Positions 31,104-40,086 of a stretch of DNA of 64,000 nucleotides are shown piece after piece. The DNA lies in contig OZ250165.1 in the NCBI GenBank assembly GCA_965238005.1, positions 2,240,001 to 2,304,000 on the forward strand, given 5' to 3'. The first letter of the stretch is position 1. Each line of letters starts with the position of its first letter. A program made the position numbers and the translations under genes. The notes beneath the pieces are model-generated. The model was not told where the DNA came from, searched no databases, and worked only from the letters and a program-made list of their open reading frames with translations. This DNA is from Longimicrobiales bacterium. GTDB lineage: Bacteria > Gemmatimonadota > Gemmatimonadetes > Longimicrobiales > Gaopeijiaceae.

Positions 31104-32704
31104 CGAGCCCTCGTGCCTTGCTGCTGGGCCTCGGCGCCCTGCTGATCGCGTCCGCGCTCTGGAGGCCTGGCGCATCGGTGGGCGCCGACTCCATGACGTC
31201 GTCAGACCAACAGAGCACCCCGGAGGAGAGCACTCCACCCCCACGGCCGCTCGGCCCCGAGGTCGAGGCGCTCCGCCGCGACCTGTCCGGATTCCTGGAC
31301 GGCACGCGGCTACGATCAGCGGAGTGGAGCGTTCTCGTCGTCTCGCTCGATCGGGGCGATACGCTCTTTGCCCGGAACGAGAGCCTCCTCGTCACCCCGG
31401 CTTCCAACATAAAGGTGGTGACGACGGCCGCCGCGCTCCACTTCCTGGGCCCCTCCTTCACGTACCAGACCTTCCTCCTCGGCGACGGCCCCGTGGAAGA
31501 AGGGCACCTCCGGGGTGATCTGATCCTGTATGGAACCGGAGACCCGGGGATCTCGGATCGGTTCTTCCGTACACGCACTCGTGTGTTCGAGAACCTGGCG
31601 GAGCAGCTGGCCGCCGAGGGCATCACCCACATCGACGGAGCCATCGTGGGTGACGCAACATATTTTTCGGGGCCAGACCTTGCGCCCGAGTGGGATCCGA
31701 GGGATCTCAACGAGAGGTTCGCGGCGCCGGCCTCCGCTCTCTCGTTCAACGAGAATATCGTCACGCTGCGGATCACTCCCGCAACCCGCCTGGGAGGCGT
31801 GCCCACAATCGAGACAATCCCGCCCGGATTCCCCCTGGAAATGAACAACACCGCTGAGACGGTCGCGGGGCGACCGCGGCCGAGACTGTGGCTCGATCGG
31901 CCGACGCCGACGTCCCTTATTCGGGTCGACGGCGAGATCACCCAGGGCGGCCCGGACATCTGGCGGCGTCTCACCGTTCCGGATCCCGCCCTGTTCGCTG
32001 CCCGAGCGCTGCGCGAGGTGTTGGAATCCCGGGGCTTCATCGTGGGCGACGGTTCCACAGCCGTTCACCGAGCCGCCCGATCCCGGATCACCGGCCGGGA
32101 GGCTTGGGCCCCGAGGCTCATGGGAGACGCAGAGCCGCGCATTCTGGCCCGCCATTCCTCACCGGAGATGATCGAGTATCTGAACGTGGTCAACCACGAC
32201 AGCCACAACCTCTTCGCCGAGACCATCTTCAAGACCATGGGCAAGGTCGTGATGGGTCAGGGATCCTTCGAGGGAGGCGCACGAGCGGTCCGGGCCTTCA
32301 CGGCTGGTGAAGTCGGGCTGGACGATCGCGACATCGTCGCGGTGGACGGCTCGGGGCTCTCGGACAGCAACCGGGCGACGGCAGGCGGATTGGTAGGGGT
32401 CCTGCGGTACGTAGCCGCGACGCCTCACTGGGATGCGTTCGTTTCCACGCTTCCCGAAGCGGGCCGTTCGCTGCGCCGGATGTACCGGACCCGGGCGGCC
32501 CGAAATCTCCGGGCCAAGACGGGGACGATTGACGGAGTCTCGGCCCTTACGGGAGTAGTCTCGGCACGGAACGGTGAAAGGCTGCTCTTCAGCATCCTCT
32601 CCAACGACGTCCCATCGACGAGCGCCGCCAAACGGGTGGAGGATCGGATCGGGGCCAGGCTCGCCGACTTTCGGAGAGCCGCACCCGACCTGCCAGGCTC
32701 CTAG
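31100..32704 (+). CDS. dacB: D-Ala-D-Ala carboxypeptidase/endopeptidase (PBP4, S13)
   Basis: PASNIK (SxxK), SHN, DGSGLS, AKTGT. Confidence 0.93.
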   Translation: MTSPRALLLGLGALLIASALWRPGASVGADSMTSSDQQSTPEESTPPPRPLGPEVEALRRDLSGFLDGTRLRSAEWSVLVVSLDRGDTLFARNESLLVTPASNIKVVTTAAALHFLGPSFTYQTFLLGDGPVEEGHLRGDLILYGTGDPGISDRFFRTRTRVFENLAEQLAAEGITHIDGAIVGDATYFSGPDLAPEWDPRDLNERFAAPASALSFNENIVTLRITPATRLGGVPTIETIPPGFPLEMNNTAETVAGRPRPRLWLDRPTPTSLIRVDGEITQGGPDIWRRLTVPDPALFAARALREVLESRGFIVGDGSTAVHRAARSRITGREAWAPRLMGDAEPRILARHSSPEMIEYLNVVNHDSHNLFAETIFKTMGKVVMGQGSFEGGARAVRAFTAGEVGLDDRDIVAVDGSGLSDSNRATAGGLVGVLRYVAATPHWDAFVSTLPEAGRSLRRMYRTRAARNLRAKTGTIDGVSALTGVVSARNGERLLFSILSNDVPSTSAAKRVEDRIGARLADFRRAAPDLPGS

Positions 32705-32718
32705 AAGCCTAGCCTAGT

Positions 32719-33003
32719 CTAGGAGCCTGCCCGAGTAATGGGGCGAGCCGCGAGAGGAGGACTGGAGGCGCGTCCCATCGCCGAGCGCAGTCGCCTGCGC
32801 AGCTCGACCTCCGATATGGTGGCCAGCGCTCGTTCAGCCGTGCCGAGGCTGTTCCAGCGCACGTCCAGGAGGTTCACGCCTTCATCGTCAGTCCCACCCC
32901 TGGGGTGGAGGTGGAGGTAGTAGCGACCCTTGTAGTCCGTACCCGACTCCGATCGTACGGTGGCCACCCAGGTGCGTCGGTCTTCGTCCAGGAAATCCGT
33001 CAT
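32719..33003 (-). CDS. Small hypothetical protein
   Basis: MTDFLDEDRRTWVA...VRWNS...ELRRRLRSA; lies about 50 nt downstream of the AraC gene on the same strand. Confidence 0.65.
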   Translation of the reverse strand: MTDFLDEDRRTWVATVRSESGTDYKGRYYLHLHPRGGTDDEGVNLLDVRWNSLGTAERALATISEVELRRRLRSAMGRASSPPLAARPITRAGS

Positions 33004-33053
33004 GAGATTCGCTTGGCGTTGATCATTTGGGCACCCACAAGCGCCGGCCGAAA

Positions 33054-33857
33054 TCAGGCCACTGATGCTCGCGACGCAGCCGAGATCTCAAACCCGCAAT
33101 CGCGGAAAAAGTGCCTGAGCACGAATGACAACCCCCCCCTCGCGGCCACCATCGTGGGCGTGGCGCCGGTATAGCTCTTCAGGGCCCTGCGGAACGCCGC
33201 CCCGGATGAATACTCCAGCTGCCGGCTGACGCTCTGCCCCGTCCGCCCGGGATCCCCCAGCCAGTGACCCGCATGGAGGAGCCGCGACCACACCAGGAGG
33301 CGTCCGATGGCCGGCAAACCGGCCCTCTTCAGGCCTACGCTCAAGAAGGGTCGAGAGAGACCCATGAGGTCGGAGAACTCCTCGGCCGACCAGCACTTGT
33401 GGACTTGGTCCAGTACGAGCCTCAGAGCCTTCGTTTCACGCGGTGGAAGCTCGGGGCTCACCTCACGAAGCACCCGAGACGTCACGCCTCTCTCTCGCGC
33501 CTTGTCGACGCTTCGCAACAATCGCCAGGCCTGATCTTCACTGCCCAGCAGAACCAGGCTCCGGAAACCGAGGCGTCCCACCTCGAAGAGAGTTCGCGGA
33601 TCCTCCTTGGCAGTGGCCAGAAGAACGAATCCCACGCTCGGAAAGTCCCGCCGCAACCTCAAAAGCCGCTCCAGCCCGCCCGGACCCCATCCCATGGACG
33701 TCAGATCGACCAGGCATACGCTCACCGGCCGCTCCCGAAGGGACAGCGCAAGCCAGCCGAGCGTCCTGGACTCAGCGACGTCGTGTACGGCCGAGAGAGC
33801 ATCTCGGAGGCTGGACTGGACCCGTGGATCCCTGGTGAACGTACTTGCGAGCGCCAT
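33054..33857 (-). CDS. AraC-family regulator with receiver-like N-terminal domain
   Basis: N-terminal VCLVDL...LRRDFPSVGFVLL (REC-like); C-terminal double HTH ...VSRQLEYSSGAAFRRALKSYTGATP; start could be 33902. Confidence 0.8.
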   Translation of the reverse strand: MALASTFTRDPRVQSSLRDALSAVHDVAESRTLGWLALSLRERPVSVCLVDLTSMGWGPGGLERLLRLRRDFPSVGFVLLATAKEDPRTLFEVGRLGFRSLVLLGSEDQAWRLLRSVDKARERGVTSRVLREVSPELPPRETKALRLVLDQVHKCWSAEEFSDLMGLSRPFLSVGLKRAGLPAIGRLLVWSRLLHAGHWLGDPGRTGQSVSRQLEYSSGAAFRRALKSYTGATPTMVAARGGLSFVLRHFFRDCGFEISAASRASVA

Positions 33858-33894
33858 GACCTTCGGAAAAGATATACCCGTGGCCGGAAATGAT

Positions 33895-33919
33895 TGCGGC
33901 ATCTAAGGATGCCGCATCC
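33895..33919. promoter_or_regulatory. Inverted repeat in divergent promoter (candidate operator)
   Basis: TGCGGCATC-TAAG-GATGCCGCA, overlapping GGATGC-C-GCATCC, next to an AT-rich stretch. Confidence 0.45.
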
Positions 33920-33984
33920 ACCTTTATCAAGTTATATGGTGCAGTCGCGCCTCACCAGCCCCACTTTCGGAGGACATCGGTCTC

Positions 33985-34154
33985 ATGAGGAAGCGCTTCG
34001 CATCTTATTCGCCGTCGCCACCTTCTCGTTCGCATTGGGTGCCTGCTCGTCCCCCGCCGGCCTGGACTGCACCACCGGAGATAGCTTCTGCCAGTCGGGC
34101 AGCAATGGTCACAATCCGGGCAGCAACGGTCACAACCCGGGCAGCGGCGGCTAA
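33985..34154 (+). CDS. Small lipoprotein-signal peptide with GSNGHNP repeats (apparent 1-nt frameshift after start)
   Basis: GGAGG at 33969 and ATG 33985. Adding one base after ATGAGGAA gives MRKALRILFAVATFSFALGA-CSSPAGLDCTTGDSFCQSGSNGHNPGSNGHNPGSGG. In-frame upstream ATGs exist at 33909 and 33936. Confidence 0.7.
34098..34145 (+). repeat. 21-bp coding tandem repeat (about 2.3 copies)
   Basis: GGCAGCAAYGGTCACAAYCCG x2 plus GGCAGC; copies differ only at synonymous positions. Confidence 0.9.
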
Positions 34155-35965
34155 GTAACCAGCTCGCCCTCCGTCGACAACTGGCCCCGCATAGCGTTCA
34201 GCTCGCTGCGGACTCCGTCGATGCCCTCGAGGGTCGCGGGTTCGGTGGGTGCACTCGCACCCTCTGCTGCGAATTCTCCGGCGCTTAGGGCTTCGAGGGC
34301 AGCCTCCGCCTGGAAGGAGATCTGGTTGTTGCCGTGCTCCTCGGAGTACGTCTTCGCTTCCGTGAGTCAGCGTTCAGCCAACTCCATGTCCCCCAGGAGG
34401 CCATAGGCCTTACCGCGATAGAGAAGTAGCTCGGAGACCATGAAGGGCGACCCGCTTCGCCAGGCCGTCTCGTCGACGGCCTCGAGTCGAGCCTCGAACT
34501 GTTTTCGACGGCCCAGAAGAGCCTCGATGTAGGCCAGGGCGTCCAGCGCGTAGACCCGATAACGGAAGTCCTGCGTACAGTGTGCCACTACCGTGTAGGC
34601 GTCTTCCGCAGCCGCGAGCTCACCCACCTCGACAAAGGCCCAGGCCAGGTCAGAGAGGGCCTGCAGCTGGTCCCGCTCCGAAGGATAAAGGCGAACCGCC
34701 TCCCAACCGTGCCGGATCGCCTTCCCGGGGCGACCGGACAGCTTCTCGTCGGTCATGAGGTCGTGGTGACTCAATCCCTGCACGTAGCGGTCGCCATCCG
34801 CCTCTCCCCACTCCAGGGTCTGTCGATGCAGCTCGAGGGCTCGCGGCAGGTTCCCCTTCTCCCGGAGGGCGTTCCCCAGCCCCAGAGTCGCCATAGCCGA
34901 CAGCCGGCCGTCGTCGAGCGCCCCACCCAGGTCCTGGGCCACCCCGTACCACTGCTCGCTCTCGTCCCATGCGCCGAGCCGGCGATGGGCTCTGCCGAGG
35001 AAGCGGGCGGCGGATCCGGCGATGGCTCCCGATCCACAGGTCACCGCTACCAGGTAGGCCAGGTTGAAGACCTCCCGAGCCCCGTGCAGGTGCCCGAGCA
35101 TGTCCACGCGGTCCGTCAGCTCCAGGAGAGAGCGTCCCAGCTCTACCCCGTCGCCGGAGCCGAGGGCTTCCAAGACCGCGCTCCAGCTCGCTCGCTCGGG
35201 ATCGCCCCGGTCCACCGCGTCGAGCTCGCGCCCAACTCCCTCGACCTGCTGACACAGGGCCTCGGGATCCAAGATGAGCTCCTCGTCCAGTGCGGACCGT
35301 ACCGCACGGGCAACGAGGAAGCGCGCGGCGATCCGGCGATTCGTCTCGGCGTCGGCCTCTCGCCCCTCCAGGTCCTTGAGGATCGCCCATCCGGAAAAGG
35401 TCTCCCCCGCCTCGGGACCGGCGCCCTTCCGCGGGCGCCTCGAACCGGCCGCTTTGCGGTCCAGATCCTGATGAAGAACCACGGCCGCCGCCTCACCAGC
35501 GAGGAACATGAGCTCGTCCGTGACCTCCACCGCGAGCCGCGCTCGGGGCGTCAGAGAGTCGACTATGAGGAACCAAGCCCTGGTTCCGTCGCTGCCCATG
35601 GCGACGCAGCAGGAGCTGCGGACGCCCGAGATCGGGATCTCACCGGAGCGCTCGGTGTCCGGCAGGTCGAGGAGGCCTGGCACACCCTTGCCCCACACGA
35701 CGCGACACGCCTGCATCGCGAAGTCTCGCCGGGGGGGATTCCCCACGAGGTCCAGCAGGCAGTGAACGTGAACCAAGCCGGGCCCGTATTCATCGACCCA
35801 AACGACGGCGGCCCGATCGGCCCCGACCAGCTCCTGCGCCGAGGTGAGATACCCCAGGAGGCATGAGCGCGCCGGGTCCCCCCGGTAGAGCGCGGCGGTC
35901 TGCTCGGACCGTTTCGCCCGCCCGCTCCGGTAATCTGCGAGGCGTGGAACGTTCGAAGTAGACAT
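34151..35965 (-). CDS. GAF-like + TPR-repeat protein with in-frame TGA at 34367-34369 (possible pseudogene)
   Basis: N-terminal AQELVGADRAAVVW...VRSSCCVAM...AWFLIVDS...ELMFLAGEAAAVV (GAF-like); TPR helices (LGRAHRRLGAWDESEQWY, LGNALREKGNLPRALELH); frame stays open 71 codons past the TGA to TAG at 34151. Confidence 0.75.
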
Positions 35966-36064
35966 CTATGCCGGACCAAATAGCTTGTCGGGGGGATCCT
36001 TTAAAACTAGGTATCGGGAGCGGGAAAAACAACGGTGACCTCTATCCCCAATCACACCTCGTCT

Positions 36065-37027
36065 ATGGCCGCAACCGCCGAAAACGGAGGGTCAGGCGCC
36101 CCGCCAGCCCCGGGTTCGCAGGCCGAAAGGCCCGTACTGCGGGTCGACATCCTCCTTGTTGTATTATGTGTCATCTGGGGAGTGAACTTCTCCGTCATTA
36201 AGGTGGCGCTGGTCGAGATCGAGCCCCTCGCGTTCAATGCCCTCAGGTTCCCCCTCGCCGCCGTAACGCTCTTCGTGCTGTTGAGATGGCGGGGTCCTAT
36301 CCCCCTTCCCCAACGGGGCCACCGGGCTCGCGTTGTCCTTCTAGGTCTTCTGGGCAACCTCGTGTATCAGTTTCTGTTCATCTTCGGGATCGACGGGACT
36401 CTGGTCGGAAACGCGAGCCTCGTCCTCGCAACAACGCCGATCTGGACCCTGGTCCTCTCCACCGCGCTCGGCCAGGAGCAGCATGCGGTGGCCGTCTGGG
36501 TGGGCGTGCTGGCGACCCTGGGAGGCATGGTGCTCGTCGTCGCCGGAGGCAGCAACGCCGTAAGCTTCGCGGACGGTCTCCCCAGGGGCGATCTGCTCCT
36601 GGTTGCCGCTGCCGTCACATGGTCCGTCTACACCGTCGGAGCTCAGGATCTGACCCGCCGGTACGGAGCGCTCGCCGTTACATCCTGGACCCTGTGGATC
36701 GGCACCGTGGGCCTTGTAGCCGCCGGCGCCGCCTCCGTCGCTGAGATGGACCTTCGCGCGGTCTCTCCCATGGCATGGGTCGGGGTCGCCTACGCCGGTA
36801 TCCTCGCTATCGCCATCGCGTATCTGCTGTGGAACCACGGGTTGCAGCACATCGGCAGTGCGCGGACTGCGGCGTTCTCGAATCTCGTTCCGGTCGTCGC
36901 GCTCATCACCGCGGCCCTGTGGCTCGGCGAAGAGCCCTCCGTTCTCCAGATGGCAGGCGCAATAACCATCATCGGAGGGGTGTGGCTGGCCCGTGTGGCC
37001 AGGACCAGAGAGGGATCGTCCGCCTAA
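36065..37027 (+). CDS. DMT/EamA family transporter
   Basis: IWGVNFSVIK, two EamA repeats, about 10 TM segments, LWLGE. Confidence 0.92.
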   Translation: MAATAENGGSGAPPAPGSQAERPVLRVDILLVVLCVIWGVNFSVIKVALVEIEPLAFNALRFPLAAVTLFVLLRWRGPIPLPQRGHRARVVLLGLLGNLVYQFLFIFGIDGTLVGNASLVLATTPIWTLVLSTALGQEQHAVAVWVGVLATLGGMVLVVAGGSNAVSFADGLPRGDLLLVAAAVTWSVYTVGAQDLTRRYGALAVTSWTLWIGTVGLVAAGAASVAEMDLRAVSPMAWVGVAYAGILAIAIAYLLWNHGLQHIGSARTAAFSNLVPVVALITAALWLGEEPSVLQMAGAITIIGGVWLARVARTREGSSA

Positions 37028-37914: not shown

Positions 37915-40086
37915 CTAGAACAGCCTCACGAGTTTGAGTCGCAAACCGGCCTGCAGGGGAGCCGGCCCCCCCTCTGGGCCCGCCAGGTTCAAGGCCAATC
38001 CTCCTTCCCCACTTCCCAGCAAGAAGTATGCACCTGAGGACGACCAGAGCCGTCCCTCGGCAAAGAAATCCCCGACCGTGATGACCGTGGGCCTCAACGA
38101 GAAGGACCCGACGCCTTCCGAGAGGGTCTCCACCAGATCGATACCCGGGAACTGCAGGGCCGCCCTCACCGGGATCTGGCTGTTCCCAGAGAGCTGCCCC
38201 TCCACCGCGATCGCCGCGCTCCAGTCCGAGAACAGAGCCTCCCAGTCCCGGCCCGTCACCGCCTCCACGTTATCGATTCCGGTCCGCGTGGTCTGGGTCA
38301 GCGACGCCAGGACGGCATCGCTGCCCGCCTGGTCCCTCAGGTAGCGAACGAACAGCCAGCCCGCGCCACGCTCTTCGAGCGTCCCCTGGCCGATGACGAC
38401 GATCAGGCTCACGTCGGCCGGATCCGCAAGGAATCGATTCGCTCGTCGCCAATTGCCCTTCTGAAAGTCTTCGGCATCGAGGCTCCCTCGCCTACGCAAC
38501 TCCTCTCCGACGAGGTCCTCGCTCATCTGGGCAAGCCCCTCGGAGAGCCAGAGCACGTCGGCACGCTGCCCGCCTCGCTGAATGATCCGCTCGTTGTGGT
38601 GGATCATGTGCTGGAGCTCGTGGGCGAGAATGGCCGGCACGGTGGCTCGGATGAGGTTCAGGCTTTGGACGTTGCCGTACCGCCCCGTGGGGTCGGGAAT
38701 CATCACGTAGAAGATCTCGGCCGCATTGCTGTCTTCGGCCTCGGTGAAGAGATCCAGGCCGAAGAAGAATCCGCCCACGAAGTCGCTGGAGCCCGGTGGG
38801 GTCAGTCGATTGACGGTGGGGGTGAAGAGGATGATGACCTTCTCGTTTCCGTCCACGTCGGAGAGTTGTCCGAAGGCTCTCACGTCCACGGTGTAGATCG
38901 GATCGTCGAAGACGCTGCCGAAGCGCTCCAGGTCGGCTGGTGCCAGGCTGCCGAGGGCTGCGACGTCCACATACAGGAGGGCTCGCTCCGACACCCCGCG
39001 AACCTCCGCCGTGACCTGATCGAACTCGCCGTCGGCCCCCACCACCTTGAAGTCCCTACGGTCCCCCACCTCGGGCGCTCGCGCTGCCGGTGAGAGAGCG
39101 GGCCGCGCCAAGGATGCTCGCTGCTTGCCGAGGAGCTCCTCCTCCAGGGCCCGCAGGAACACCTTCCACTCCTCCCGAATCGCCCGGTCATGAGGCTCGG
39201 AAGCGGTCAGCCCTCCACTCGAAGGAGACACCAGGCGGGCTGCCGGTGTTTGCGACGACCGCCGCAGGCCTGTGAGCGCGTAGTCGAATCGGGCCGCACC
39301 GATGGAGCTCGCAGACTGGGCAACGGCCAGCCAGTTCCCCACCGCCAGGCGGAGGCACGAAGGGCCGTCTCCGATGACGACGGTCGTATCGGCCCCGAAG
39401 TCCGGATCGAGCGCCGCACCGGAAGCCCGAATACCCAGGGAAAGCGCTCTGCTCGCTTCGTCTCCCAAACGCACCGACACGTCCACCGTCGTGCTGGGCA
39501 GACATGGCGGCACCTCTACGGAGAGCCGGGTCGGCCCTGCGGCCATGACGGATCCGCGAATCCCCGAGAAGAGTACCACGTTATGAGATGCGATCGCGCT
39601 GAAGTTGTCTCCGTCCAGCGTGATGAGGTCTCCGGCATCCGCGGTGACTGTAGACAGCCCCGTGAGCTGTGGGGGAAGCACGGCCCATGCCTCGAACTCC
39701 ACGAACCGCTCGGGTTGGTCTCGAAGCCGAGCCTGTATCAGGTAGCGGCCCAGGCCGTTGCCCAAGCGGAGGCGTGCCGTCGCCAGCCCGGTGGAGTCGC
39801 TCTGGCTGGTCCCGGGGTCCAACTGCGCGCCGGAGCCTTCTACGACCGACCACTCCACCACGACGCCCTCCACGGGCCGTCCATCGCCGATCCGCAGAGC
39901 CGACACGGTCAGGGGATCTATGAGGAACTGACCGGAGGGTCCGAATTGGCCGCTCCCCGACACGGCCACCAGGTCGACTTCCGGTGTGGGCGGCTCGGTA
40001 GGACCGTCCTCGGAGCAGGTCGTGATGCCCAGTGAAGCGAGGAGGGTGACTCCGACGAGGAGCCTGCGCGAAAACGGGTCCATCAC
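37915..40086 (-). CDS. Lipoprotein with Ig/IPT domains and M30-like zinc metallopeptidase domain
   Basis: Signal peptide with ITTC; Ig-like SDSTGLAT; IPT ITLDGDNFS; AHELQHMI and WLSEGLA. Confidence 0.8.
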   Translation of the reverse strand: MMDPFSRRLLVGVTLLASLGITTCSEDGPTEPPTPEVDLVAVSGSGQFGPSGQFLIDPLTVSALRIGDGRPVEGVVVEWSVVEGSGAQLDPGTSQSDSTGLATARLRLGNGLGRYLIQARLRDQPERFVEFEAWAVLPPQLTGLSTVTADAGDLITLDGDNFSAIASHNVVLFSGIRGSVMAAGPTRLSVEVPPCLPSTTVDVSVRLGDEASRALSLGIRASGAALDPDFGADTTVVIGDGPSCLRLAVGNWLAVAQSASSIGAARFDYALTGLRRSSQTPAARLVSPSSGGLTASEPHDRAIREEWKVFLRALEEELLGKQRASLARPALSPAARAPEVGDRRDFKVVGADGEFDQVTAEVRGVSERALLYVDVAALGSLAPADLERFGSVFDDPIYTVDVRAFGQLSDVDGNEKVIILFTPTVNRLTPPGSSDFVGGFFFGLDLFTEAEDSNAAEIFYVMIPDPTGRYGNVQSLNLIRATVPAILAHELQHMIHHNERIIQRGGQRADVLWLSEGLAQMSEDLVGEELRRRGSLDAEDFQKGNWRRANRFLADPADVSLIVVIGQGTLEERGAGWLFVRYLRDQAGSDAVLASLTQTTRTGIDNVEAVTGRDWEALFSDWSAAIAVEGQLSGNSQIPVRAALQFPGIDLVETLSEGVGSFSLRPTVITVGDFFAEGRLWSSSGAYFLLGSGEGGLALNLAGPEGGPAPLQAGLRLKLVRLF

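Follow-up and report, generated by a model that had tools for sequence, protein, structure and literature searches.

We analysed a stretch of 64,000 nucleotides from the genome of a Longimicrobiales bacterium (Gemmatimonadota; contig OZ250165.1 of assembly GCA_965238005.1, positions 2,240,001 to 2,304,000), hereafter the window, in which three tightly packed genes lie between positions 33,054 and 35,965. They encode an AraC-like regulator, a small lipopeptide that ends in heptad repeats and a large protein in which a GAF-like N-terminal domain (N-domain) is followed by tetratricopeptide repeats (TPR); coordinates are collected in Table 1. The lipopeptide gene is divergent from the regulator gene and converges on the TPR gene, and the stop codons of the latter two (TAA, 34152-34154, and TAG, 34151-34153, respectively) overlap in the four bases CTAA. 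The original prediction, made by a model from the letters of the window, had described this packing and the CTAA at 34151-34154, and had read the locus as a candidate undescribed peptide-signalling cassette. All three genes and the overlap are confirmed, and the arrangement, recurring in 66 of 66 usable related loci, is far beyond chance. The trio is a conserved, co-inherited unit, and its repeated heptads are held constant by selection.

Table 1. Features at and around the three-gene cassette, in coordinates of the window
Feature	Position	Strand	Remarks
AraC-like regulator open reading frame	33054..33902	-	282 aa as open frame; probable gene 33054..33857
Lipopeptide gene, frameshifted	33985..34154	+	Shine-Dalgarno (SD) sequence, ATG, lipobox, heptad repeats, TAA
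GAF-like + TPR protein gene	34151..35965	-	605 codons, TGA inside
N-domain of the TPR protein	~35450-35941	-	residues 9-172
TPR superhelix	~34283-35389	-	residues 193-561
Conserved C-terminal helix	~34154-34219	-	predicted, AlphaFold2 model
Conserved DNA element TTCGGAAAAGATATACCC	33862..33879	+	adjoins the Met16 codon of the regulator
Inverted repeat TGCGGCATC-taag-GATGCCGCA	33895..33916	+	between the element and the peptide gene
94-aa protein gene, no known family	32719-33003	-	directly downstream of the regulator, same strand

A profile scan of species-representative genomes returned 78 loci, 66 of which were usable, the TPR gene being complete and followed by no less than 500 nt of sequence. 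In every one of the 66 an AraC-like gene follows the TPR gene in the same orientation, and the interval separating them contains a small open reading frame (ORF) with a lipobox, which has the opposite orientation and converges on the TPR gene. A first pattern detected this ORF in 62 loci and a wider one in 65; the last, at L071, is interrupted by Ns and was recognised by eye. One locus carries an in-frame stop in the lipopeptide gene and another carries two tandem copies of the gene. The 4-nt overlap of the convergent stops is shared by 13 of 65 loci, and in 35 of 65 the stops are 0-30 nt apart (median 13). Gene order across relatives, named beforehand as a check on the prediction, is thus conserved in all usable loci.

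Presence and absence of the genes tell the same story. Among 24 genomes of the same family (these co-occurrence tallies are the only ones to include genome G025), TPR orthologues of 38-95% identity over nearly the whole length were found in 13 and AraC orthologues (40-98%) in the same 13, the other 11 having neither. In the window the trio is flanked on one side by genes for an FAD-linked oxidase, an S13 D-Ala-D-Ala carboxypeptidase and the 94-aa protein, and on the other by an EamA transporter gene and a gene for a Zn-ribbon membrane protein. The flanks are syntenic, the Zn-ribbon gene being kept in 62 of 66 loci, the EamA gene in 40 of 66 and the 94-aa gene in 55 of 59. In family genomes that lack the cassette the Zn-ribbon and 94-aa genes are 0-1.2 kb apart in five of five, and since the flanks adjoin in all five, the three genes are gained or lost as a unit. 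The 94-aa gene, kept in these five genomes without the cassette, is a flank and not a member of it.

With a profile of the N-domain, 300 genomes sampled evenly across the phylum yielded the full-length form in 3 of 47 family genomes, a fourth holding a stand-alone N-domain paralogue only, and in none of the approximately 250 genomes of other families. The related records come without exception from metagenome-assembled genomes of Longimicrobiales or Gemmatimonadota. On this sampling the cassette appears patchy and confined to one family of Longimicrobiales (Gemmatimonadota). Stand-alone paralogues of the N-domain, in open frames of 175-350 aa, are seen outside the window at G000:C1:4746534-4747013 and also in G013, G151 and G314.

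More distant versions of the module occur in two sister families, in the form of TPR-only relatives of approximately 430 aa that match from a residue numbered at least 183 and are therefore without the N-domain. They adjoin AraC-like genes, with up to nine TPR matches per genome. Nine of the 14 paralogous loci that we fetched have a small lipoprotein gene convergent on the 3' end of the TPR gene, and seven of these nine lipoproteins end in ...[H/Y/T/L]-x-G-S-G-[G/S/N]. Where the order is AraC-TPR and then the convergent peptide gene, the peptide gene stays with the TPR gene and not with the regulator. A search for flanking short lipobox ORFs with a C-terminal GSG/GSN motif had been suggested; such ORFs, ending in GSG[GN], are found beside the TPR homologues and in the sister-family modules as well.

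The lipopeptide frame of the window encodes ILFAVATFSFALGAC and ends in GSNGHNPGSNGHNPGSGG, with the lipobox LGAC. An SD sequence, GGAGGA (33969-33974), lies 11 nt upstream of the ATG at 33985, the lipobox Cys codon is at 34044-34046, and a 21-nt tandem repeat at 34096-34145 corresponds to the heptad repeats, the two full copies of which differ by two changes, both Asn AAT to AAC. The related loci provided 63 distinct precursors of 29-87 aa with signal peptides of 17-22 aa, whose type matches that of bacterial lipoproteins: a basic n-region, a hydrophobic core and a lipobox ending in Cys. The lipobox reads x-[AST]-[AG]-C; its Cys is invariant, position -1 is A/G/S, position -2 mostly A/T/G/S and position +2 G/S/T. 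As position -3 is often Ala, signal peptidase I may also cut these precursors at A-x-A. The genome encodes LspA (Peptidase_A8, 1.6e-34). An extra Cys-x(4-9)-Cys pair stands ahead of the repeats in 28 of the 63 precursors. At one locus (L063, 4331-4635) two tandem lipopeptide genes share a cassette, one of them ending in IIPGPNT and the other having IIPGPNT followed by YTCE.

The tail of the precursors is made of 1-8 tandem units, nearly always of seven residues and mostly reaching the C-terminus. The units have a common heptad shape, [H/Y]-x-[P/L/I]-[G/D]-x-G-x; in the last seven residues of the 63 precursors, position 1 is H/Y in 43, position 3 is P/L/I in 54, position 4 is G/D in 51, position 6 is G/N in 50 and position 7 is N/G/S in 49. 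The heptads themselves are lineage-specific (HNPGSNG, HTLGSGN, YQPGPNG, YNPDPGQ, IQPGTGN, YDLGSDN and others) and follow the TPR tree. Between adjacent copies in the 47 genes with at least two units we counted 399 synonymous and 25 non-synonymous changes, giving proportions of synonymous (pS) and non-synonymous (pN) change of 0.47 and 0.009, respectively, and a pN/pS ratio of 0.02. This pattern of substitution indicates that every copy is under strong purifying selection and is held to the same amino-acid sequence. Because of the low ratio the copies are neither fresh slippage products nor a drifting low-complexity tail, and this signature, which is independent of any mechanism, implies that something recognises the heptad itself. 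The small exported lipobox gene with C-terminal repeats that had been predicted is therefore real, having orthologues in all 66 loci and repeats that bear the mark of selection.

The second partner was predicted as a protein of approximately 600 aa, GAF-like and TPR-containing. Its 605-codon frame, running from 35965 to the TAG, and its domain layout stand, with the correction that the frame is interrupted by a TGA at codon 533 (34367-34369), which leaves an ORF of 532 aa. The AlphaFold2 (AF2) model (predicted local distance difference test, pLDDT, 87.4) comprises an alpha/beta N-domain, a disordered linker, a TPR superhelix and a C-terminal helix. The superhelix has approximately nine repeats and TPR_12 matches above the Pfam cut-off. 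The N-domain (residues 9-172) is alpha/beta with five strands in a topology that fits GAF; GAF_2 was weakly matched in 7 of 44 members (best E 0.0037), the ESM Atlas returned GAF clusters at 0.97, and a PDB sequence-profile search with the N-domain gave no match. A VIA fold search used the whole 605-aa model and the matches listed all came from the TPR part. On weak but concordant grounds we regard the N-domain as GAF-like. It is the best-conserved part of the protein: mean distances are 0.51 for the N-domain, 0.54 for the regulator and 0.58 for the TPR part, which is the most diverged.

The protein has no signal peptide or membrane helix, a 19-aa window with a Kyte-Doolittle (KD) value of at least 1.6 occurring in only 1 of 60 members. 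A DNA-binding domain was found neither by Pfam nor in the AF2 model, in agreement with the prediction of a receptor that has no visible one. No family-specific sequence model matched the protein; Pfam gave generic TPR families only, and the generic TPR models of NCBIfam and PADLOC were far under their cut-offs. The best Foldseek match of the superhelix is LGN/Pins (E 1e-8), with RapI at rank 33. The VIA Z scores are 19.3 and 18.6 for LGN/Pins, 17.5 for designed TPRs and 15.8 for MalT; those for the peptide-sensing proteins are 17.1 for RapH-Spo0F (3q15), 16.9 for Rap phi105 with its peptide, 15.8 for PlcR, 15.7 for RapI and 15.3 for NprR.

The third partner, the regulator, has a receiver fold at residues 18-138 and two helix-turn-helix (HTH) motifs at approximately 154-270. 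HTH_18 scores 27.4 bits in the window protein, under the Pfam cut-off of 33.6, and among family members HTH_18 is matched in 56 of 56 and HTH_AraC in 43 of 56. The family profile matches the DNA-binding domain of AdpA at 2.2e-11 and also matches VirS, GadX and SoxS. In the AF2 model (pLDDT 90.7) the N-terminus forms a (beta-alpha)5 receiver fold and the C-terminus a double HTH. Foldseek returned RcsB, StyR, FixJ, NarL and the HupR receiver for the N-terminus; TMt is 0.74-0.78 with a root-mean-square deviation (rmsd) of 3.5 Å for the HupR receiver, and 0.79 with an rmsd of 2.7 Å for CheY4. The family HTH matches, the modelled fold and Foldseek together uphold the earlier description of an AraC protein with a receiver-like N-terminus.

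This receiver is an unusual one. Of 46 orthologues, 43 keep Asp66 at the place of the phospho-acceptor and 39 keep Asp25, but 27 have Arg at position 24 and 28 have Arg where beta4 ends. The phosphorylation site is thus not complete: the acidic pair is broken, the Thr/Ser is missing and there is no Lys in the beta5-alpha5 loop. The listed 25 Pfam families with most matches in the 56 members (E 1) do not include Response_reg, and no kinase gene adjoins the regulator at the locus. The regulator is an orphan pseudo-receiver fused to an AraC-type DNA-binding domain. Its Met16 is invariant in 46 of 46 orthologues. Since the stretch that precedes it (the first 15 codons of the open frame) is conserved as DNA with reading frames that differ, translation probably starts at Met16 (33857) rather than at 33902. 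A second receiver-AraC paralogue, 30-32% identical and in a 442-aa open frame, occurs in the same genome outside the window (L039, 3146-3934; G000:C1:62151-62957) with no TPR match beside it.

The DNA between the divergent regulator and lipopeptide genes is itself conserved. An element of the pattern TTCGRARADKRYR, then ATACCC, occurs at the same place in the window and in all 66 usable loci (in the set L040-L115). TTCGRARADKRYR is present once in the 64-kb window against 0.12 expected, and was not found in the paralogous modules L025-L039. At a related locus in which a transposase has inserted, the element remains on the peptide-gene side. It probably serves the two divergent genes jointly as an operator or promoter element. 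Between the element and the lipopeptide gene lies an inverted repeat with 9-bp arms, which holds the ATG (33902) taken in the original prediction as the AraC start. A perfect inverted repeat of at least 6 bp is seen at the same place in 22 of 67 sequences, its arms varying between genera yet staying complementary, and it may form a 5' hairpin of the lipopeptide mRNA. Rfam gave no match at E up to 1 over 32600-36200, and a scan for sigma-70 promoters and intrinsic terminators over 33750-34450 gave 0 sites.

The original prediction missed a nonsense codon and a frameshift in the cassette of the window. The column of the TGA in the TPR gene is Trp in at least 90% of 60 homologues of approximately 600 aa; TPR orthologues are open for approximately 600 aa, and that of the close relative G002 (95% identical) is open over 605 aa. 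We discarded the idea that the TGA might be read as a sense codon, since in the close relative the frame is an ordinary open one at that place and nothing suggests another genetic code. In the lipopeptide gene two extra bases follow ATGAGGAA (approximately 33993-33995, after codon 3) in the window only, as compared to four of four relatives aligned, and the DNA alignment with four close relatives also reveals a 9-nt in-frame loss in the first repeat. Because of the two extra bases the ATG at 33985 is out of the lipobox frame. Thus the lipobox LGA-C, the C-terminal repeats and the shared stop of the predicted lipopeptide of approximately 56 aa hold, and the 56-aa ORF itself does not exist. The in-frame starts that are left are ATG 33936 (72 aa) and TTG 33894 (86 aa). 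At 33936 the window has A as compared to G in contigs of other strains, and it is this A that gives an ATG in the lipobox register; it may be a compensating change giving a 72-aa precursor.

Both lesions were checked in Logan short-read contigs of four sequencing runs from three studies over 33850-34500. The contigs of X1 and X2, which come from different studies, are identical to the window across the TGA and frameshift sites, and that of X3 is identical across the frameshift site; a variant contig of X4 is without the two bases at 33993 and represents the intact form. X1 is perhaps the sample behind the genome assembly, in which case X2 is an independent witness. As independent short-read contigs carry both lesions, they are real and not assembly errors. 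Truncation would deprive the TPR protein of its final one and a half TPR units and of the conserved C-terminal helix.

Damage is common in the nearest relatives, five of the six closest loci, the window included, having a lesion and one being intact. In one of the six the lipopeptide has a single degenerate heptad unit. In G001 (L003/L019/L052) the TPR gene is spread over three frames and the repeat array is broken, and in G002 (L002/L016/L040) the AraC gene is spread over three frames; these frameshifts may be long-read indel errors or real decay. At L018 (6216-7283; = L042) a DDE_3 transposase lies between the conserved element and the AraC-like gene and severs the 5' end of the regulator. 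Another apparent null allele is seen at L080 (4279-4545), where an in-frame stop separates the lipobox part from the heptads.

Based on these data, the best available reading of the cassette as a whole is, by analogy, that of a Rap-Phr-like lipopeptide signalling cassette, which we put forward tentatively and which could well be wrong. It draws strong support from the comparison of genomes, its central step of peptide binding being proposed by analogy. As in Rap-Phr, the precursor would be exported, here as a lipid-anchored lipoprotein presenting a short linker, often closed by a Cys-Cys loop, and then 1-8 identical heptapeptides. Proteolysis would free the heptapeptide units, an Opp/Dpp-type importer would carry them back into the cell, and they would bind inside the TPR superhelix. 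The TPR protein would in turn control the pseudo-receiver-AraC regulator by protein-protein contact, and the regulator would act on the conserved element in the divergent promoter region. The genome has two intact family-5 solute-binding protein genes (SBP_bac_5, Opp/Dpp-type), which are permissive only. The complete version of this proposal, in which a diderm pheromone system makes up to eight heptapeptides per lipid-anchored precursor, re-imports them and reads them with the GAF-TPR protein, which controls a kinase-less regulator in the manner of Rap, we consider conceivable and rather doubtful. A third SBP_bac_5 gene (outside the window, G000:C1:544438-544959) has two internal stops, and the genome therefore carries other pseudogenes too.

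Several observations weigh against the Rap-Phr-like proposal, the first of which concerns coupling between peptide and receptor. In Mantel and partial Mantel tests, for which 32 of the 66 loci had every gene at full length, peptide distance correlated with that of the TPR domain (r = 0.605) and equally with that of EamA, which is outside the cassette (r = 0.615); the partial correlations were 0.18 for peptide and TPR given EamA and 0.22 for peptide and EamA given TPR. When the TPR domain and the regulator were set against each other as correlates of the peptide, the TPR domain kept the signal (partial 0.36 versus -0.02). On a quick TPR tree each peptide type keeps to its clade, and independent changes are few. 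Thus the proposed check for peptide-receptor co-variation revealed nothing TPR-specific beyond shared phylogeny in these 32 loci. Prediction of a complex between the full TPR protein and the mature lipopeptide of the closest intact relative scored 0.03 against a mark of 0.32 in a run without controls and counts neither way, and on peptide-TPR binding no evidence was gained in either direction. None of the sequencing runs listed as holding the region is an RNA run.

The fold comparison does not help the proposal either: judged on the AF2 model, the likeness of the superhelix to Rap, NprR and PlcR is within the range that repeat proteins reach and is no better than its likeness to LGN, MalT and designed TPRs. 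There is also a problem of topology, the receptor being cytoplasmic whereas the peptide would sit anchored on the far side of a diderm's inner membrane, such that release and re-import have to be assumed, and neither a protease nor an importer is found in the cassette or as a member of the indel unit. The GAF-like N-domain could take another ligand as its input. Finally, with receptor and peptide genes both damaged, the copy in the window is probably inactive or decaying. Of the original reading of the locus as analogous to the RRNPP systems, what is supported is the unit, the selected lipopeptide, the TPR protein without a DNA-binding domain and the receiver-like AraC protein; TPR-specific co-variation was not seen in the 32 loci, and the fold comparison does not single out Rap.

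The strongest competitor turns the direction of the signal around, making the lipoprotein a regulated output. The GAF-TPR protein would sense another input, such as a small molecule, and together with the regulator would switch the lipoprotein gene, the tail of which would work in the envelope in binding, adhesion or as a decoy. This fits the regulator being divergent from the lipopeptide gene with the conserved element between them in 67 of 67 sequences, and the N-domain being the best-conserved part of the sensor; the failure to find TPR-specific co-variation with the peptide and the lack of a protease and an importer in the cassette are likewise what it would lead one to expect. In the second gene order, however, the peptide gene stays at the TPR gene and not at the regulator, and the TPR-only paralogues keep a lipopeptide although they have no GAF domain. 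Moreover, the identity of up to eight copies (pN/pS 0.02) and the conserved motif at the extreme C-terminus are more readily explained by a released ligand than by a structural tail. We regard a regulated output as a serious possibility, if an unlikely one.

A different arrangement, which we consider improbable, would have the TPR protein bind the whole tail of the unexported precursor in the cytoplasm, the heptads lying along the superhelix, and thereby gauge how well the cell can export or mature lipoproteins instead of sensing an outside signal. The cytoplasm is where both partners are synthesised, the heptads (up to eight) are about as many as the TPR units (approximately nine), and the best fold matches of the superhelix, LGN/Pins, were solved with partner peptides. 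The partner peptides of LGN/Pins bind in an extended form. Many orthologues, however, have only one or two units, and we know of no precedent for a TPR protein that senses the tail of an unexported lipoprotein precursor, which counts against such a mechanism.

Could the small gene instead encode the precursor of a ribosomally synthesized and post-translationally modified peptide (RiPP) with several core peptides? Its short repeated units start with an aromatic residue or His, and the TPR protein has a weak generic match to a TPR protein of cyclophane RiPP clusters (NF041717, 28.6 bits versus a cut-off of 1125). The conserved neighbourhood (EamA, Zn-ribbon, 94-aa, S13 peptidase and FAD oxidase genes) holds no modifying enzyme, though, the indel unit is of three genes only and the leader is a lipoprotein signal peptide, leaving this explanation very improbable. 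That the genes have no functional link and merely share inherited synteny with a drifting low-complexity tail is barely credible: although synteny in the family extends to the whole neighbourhood (Zn-ribbon gene, EamA, cassette and 94-aa gene), the trio comes and goes as one block while its flanks stay constant, paralogous modules elsewhere keep the same three parts, and the pN/pS of 0.02 between repeat copies excludes drift.

In the neighbourhood of the window locus, approximately 2 kb from the cassette, a gene at 37915-40086 on the minus strand encodes a 723-aa protein with a lipoprotein-like N-terminus, a weak TIG domain match and an HELQH (HExxH) motif. At least one relative (L009) has it in a syntenic position. 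The protein may be a metalloprotease that is exported, and purely as speculation it is a candidate processing protease.

Gemmatimonadota are widespread, poorly cultured bacteria of soils and sediments. Among the top matches listed in our full-text literature searches there is no description of the cassette, and where a Gemmatimonadota term was included none of them links it to pheromones, RRNPP or TPR signalling; one unrelated match mentions Gemmatimonadota once. If the Rap-Phr-like reading is true, the cassette would be the first case of RRNPP-like communication to lie outside the monoderm Bacillota, and a Gemmatimonadota family would have lineage-specific 'pherotypes' and natural null alleles like that of the window. 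The logic of receptor, propeptide and regulator would then exist behind an outer membrane, and a lipid-anchored multi-copy precursor would join the known ways of making a signal. The cassette moreover yields testable reagents: heptapeptides of defined sequence, plus a receptor and a regulator whose models are confident.

Among known systems, LGN/Pins, solved with partner peptides, provides the best structural match of the superhelix; these are eukaryotic polarity proteins and the likeness is one of repeat architecture only. Response regulators of the YesN type combine a receiver with an AraC-type output domain. The regulator described here likewise has a receiver fold followed by an AraC double HTH, and differs from them in its incomplete phosphorylation site and in having no adjacent kinase gene. 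Several identical peptides in one exported precursor are known from yeast alpha-factor and from neuropeptide precursors, which are eukaryotic, are processed at dibasic sites and act on surface receptors. As in those precursors, identical copies are kept here at the protein level, with no cleavage motif or protease identified. The bacterial PlcR-PapR, NprR-NprX and AimR-AimP pairs share with the cassette a TPR receptor beside an exported propeptide (VIA Z 15.8 for PlcR and 15.3 for NprR), but those receptors carry their own N-terminal HTH, whereas here a separate regulator is encoded beside the TPR protein.

The closest parallel is Rap-Phr. Both have a cytoplasmic TPR protein without a DNA-binding domain beside a gene for a short exported propeptide, and in both the candidate signal stands at the C-terminus of the propeptide and can occur in tandem copies, tandemly duplicated pheromones having been described in Phr propeptides (PMC11343458). 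Output in either case would pass through a separate protein of the response-regulator type, RapH having been solved with the receiver protein Spo0F (3q15), and some lineages have several paralogous modules per genome. RRNPP systems have been described in Firmicutes and in mobile elements of these bacteria, and a large published screen covered Firmicutes and viruses only, with receptors of 250-500 aa (PMC10075063). The present cassette differs from Rap-Phr in several respects. There is no specific sequence kinship, the Pfam matches being to generic TPR families and none in NCBIfam being above the cut-off; a GAF-like N-domain takes the place of the helical bundle of Rap, with no HTH; and the TPR and peptide genes are convergent and overlapping. 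The TPR protein is partnered by a pseudo-receiver joined to an AraC domain, the propeptide carries a lipobox with an invariant Cys and up to eight identical heptads, and the host is a diderm of the Gemmatimonadota rather than a member of the Bacillota, a plasmid or a phage.

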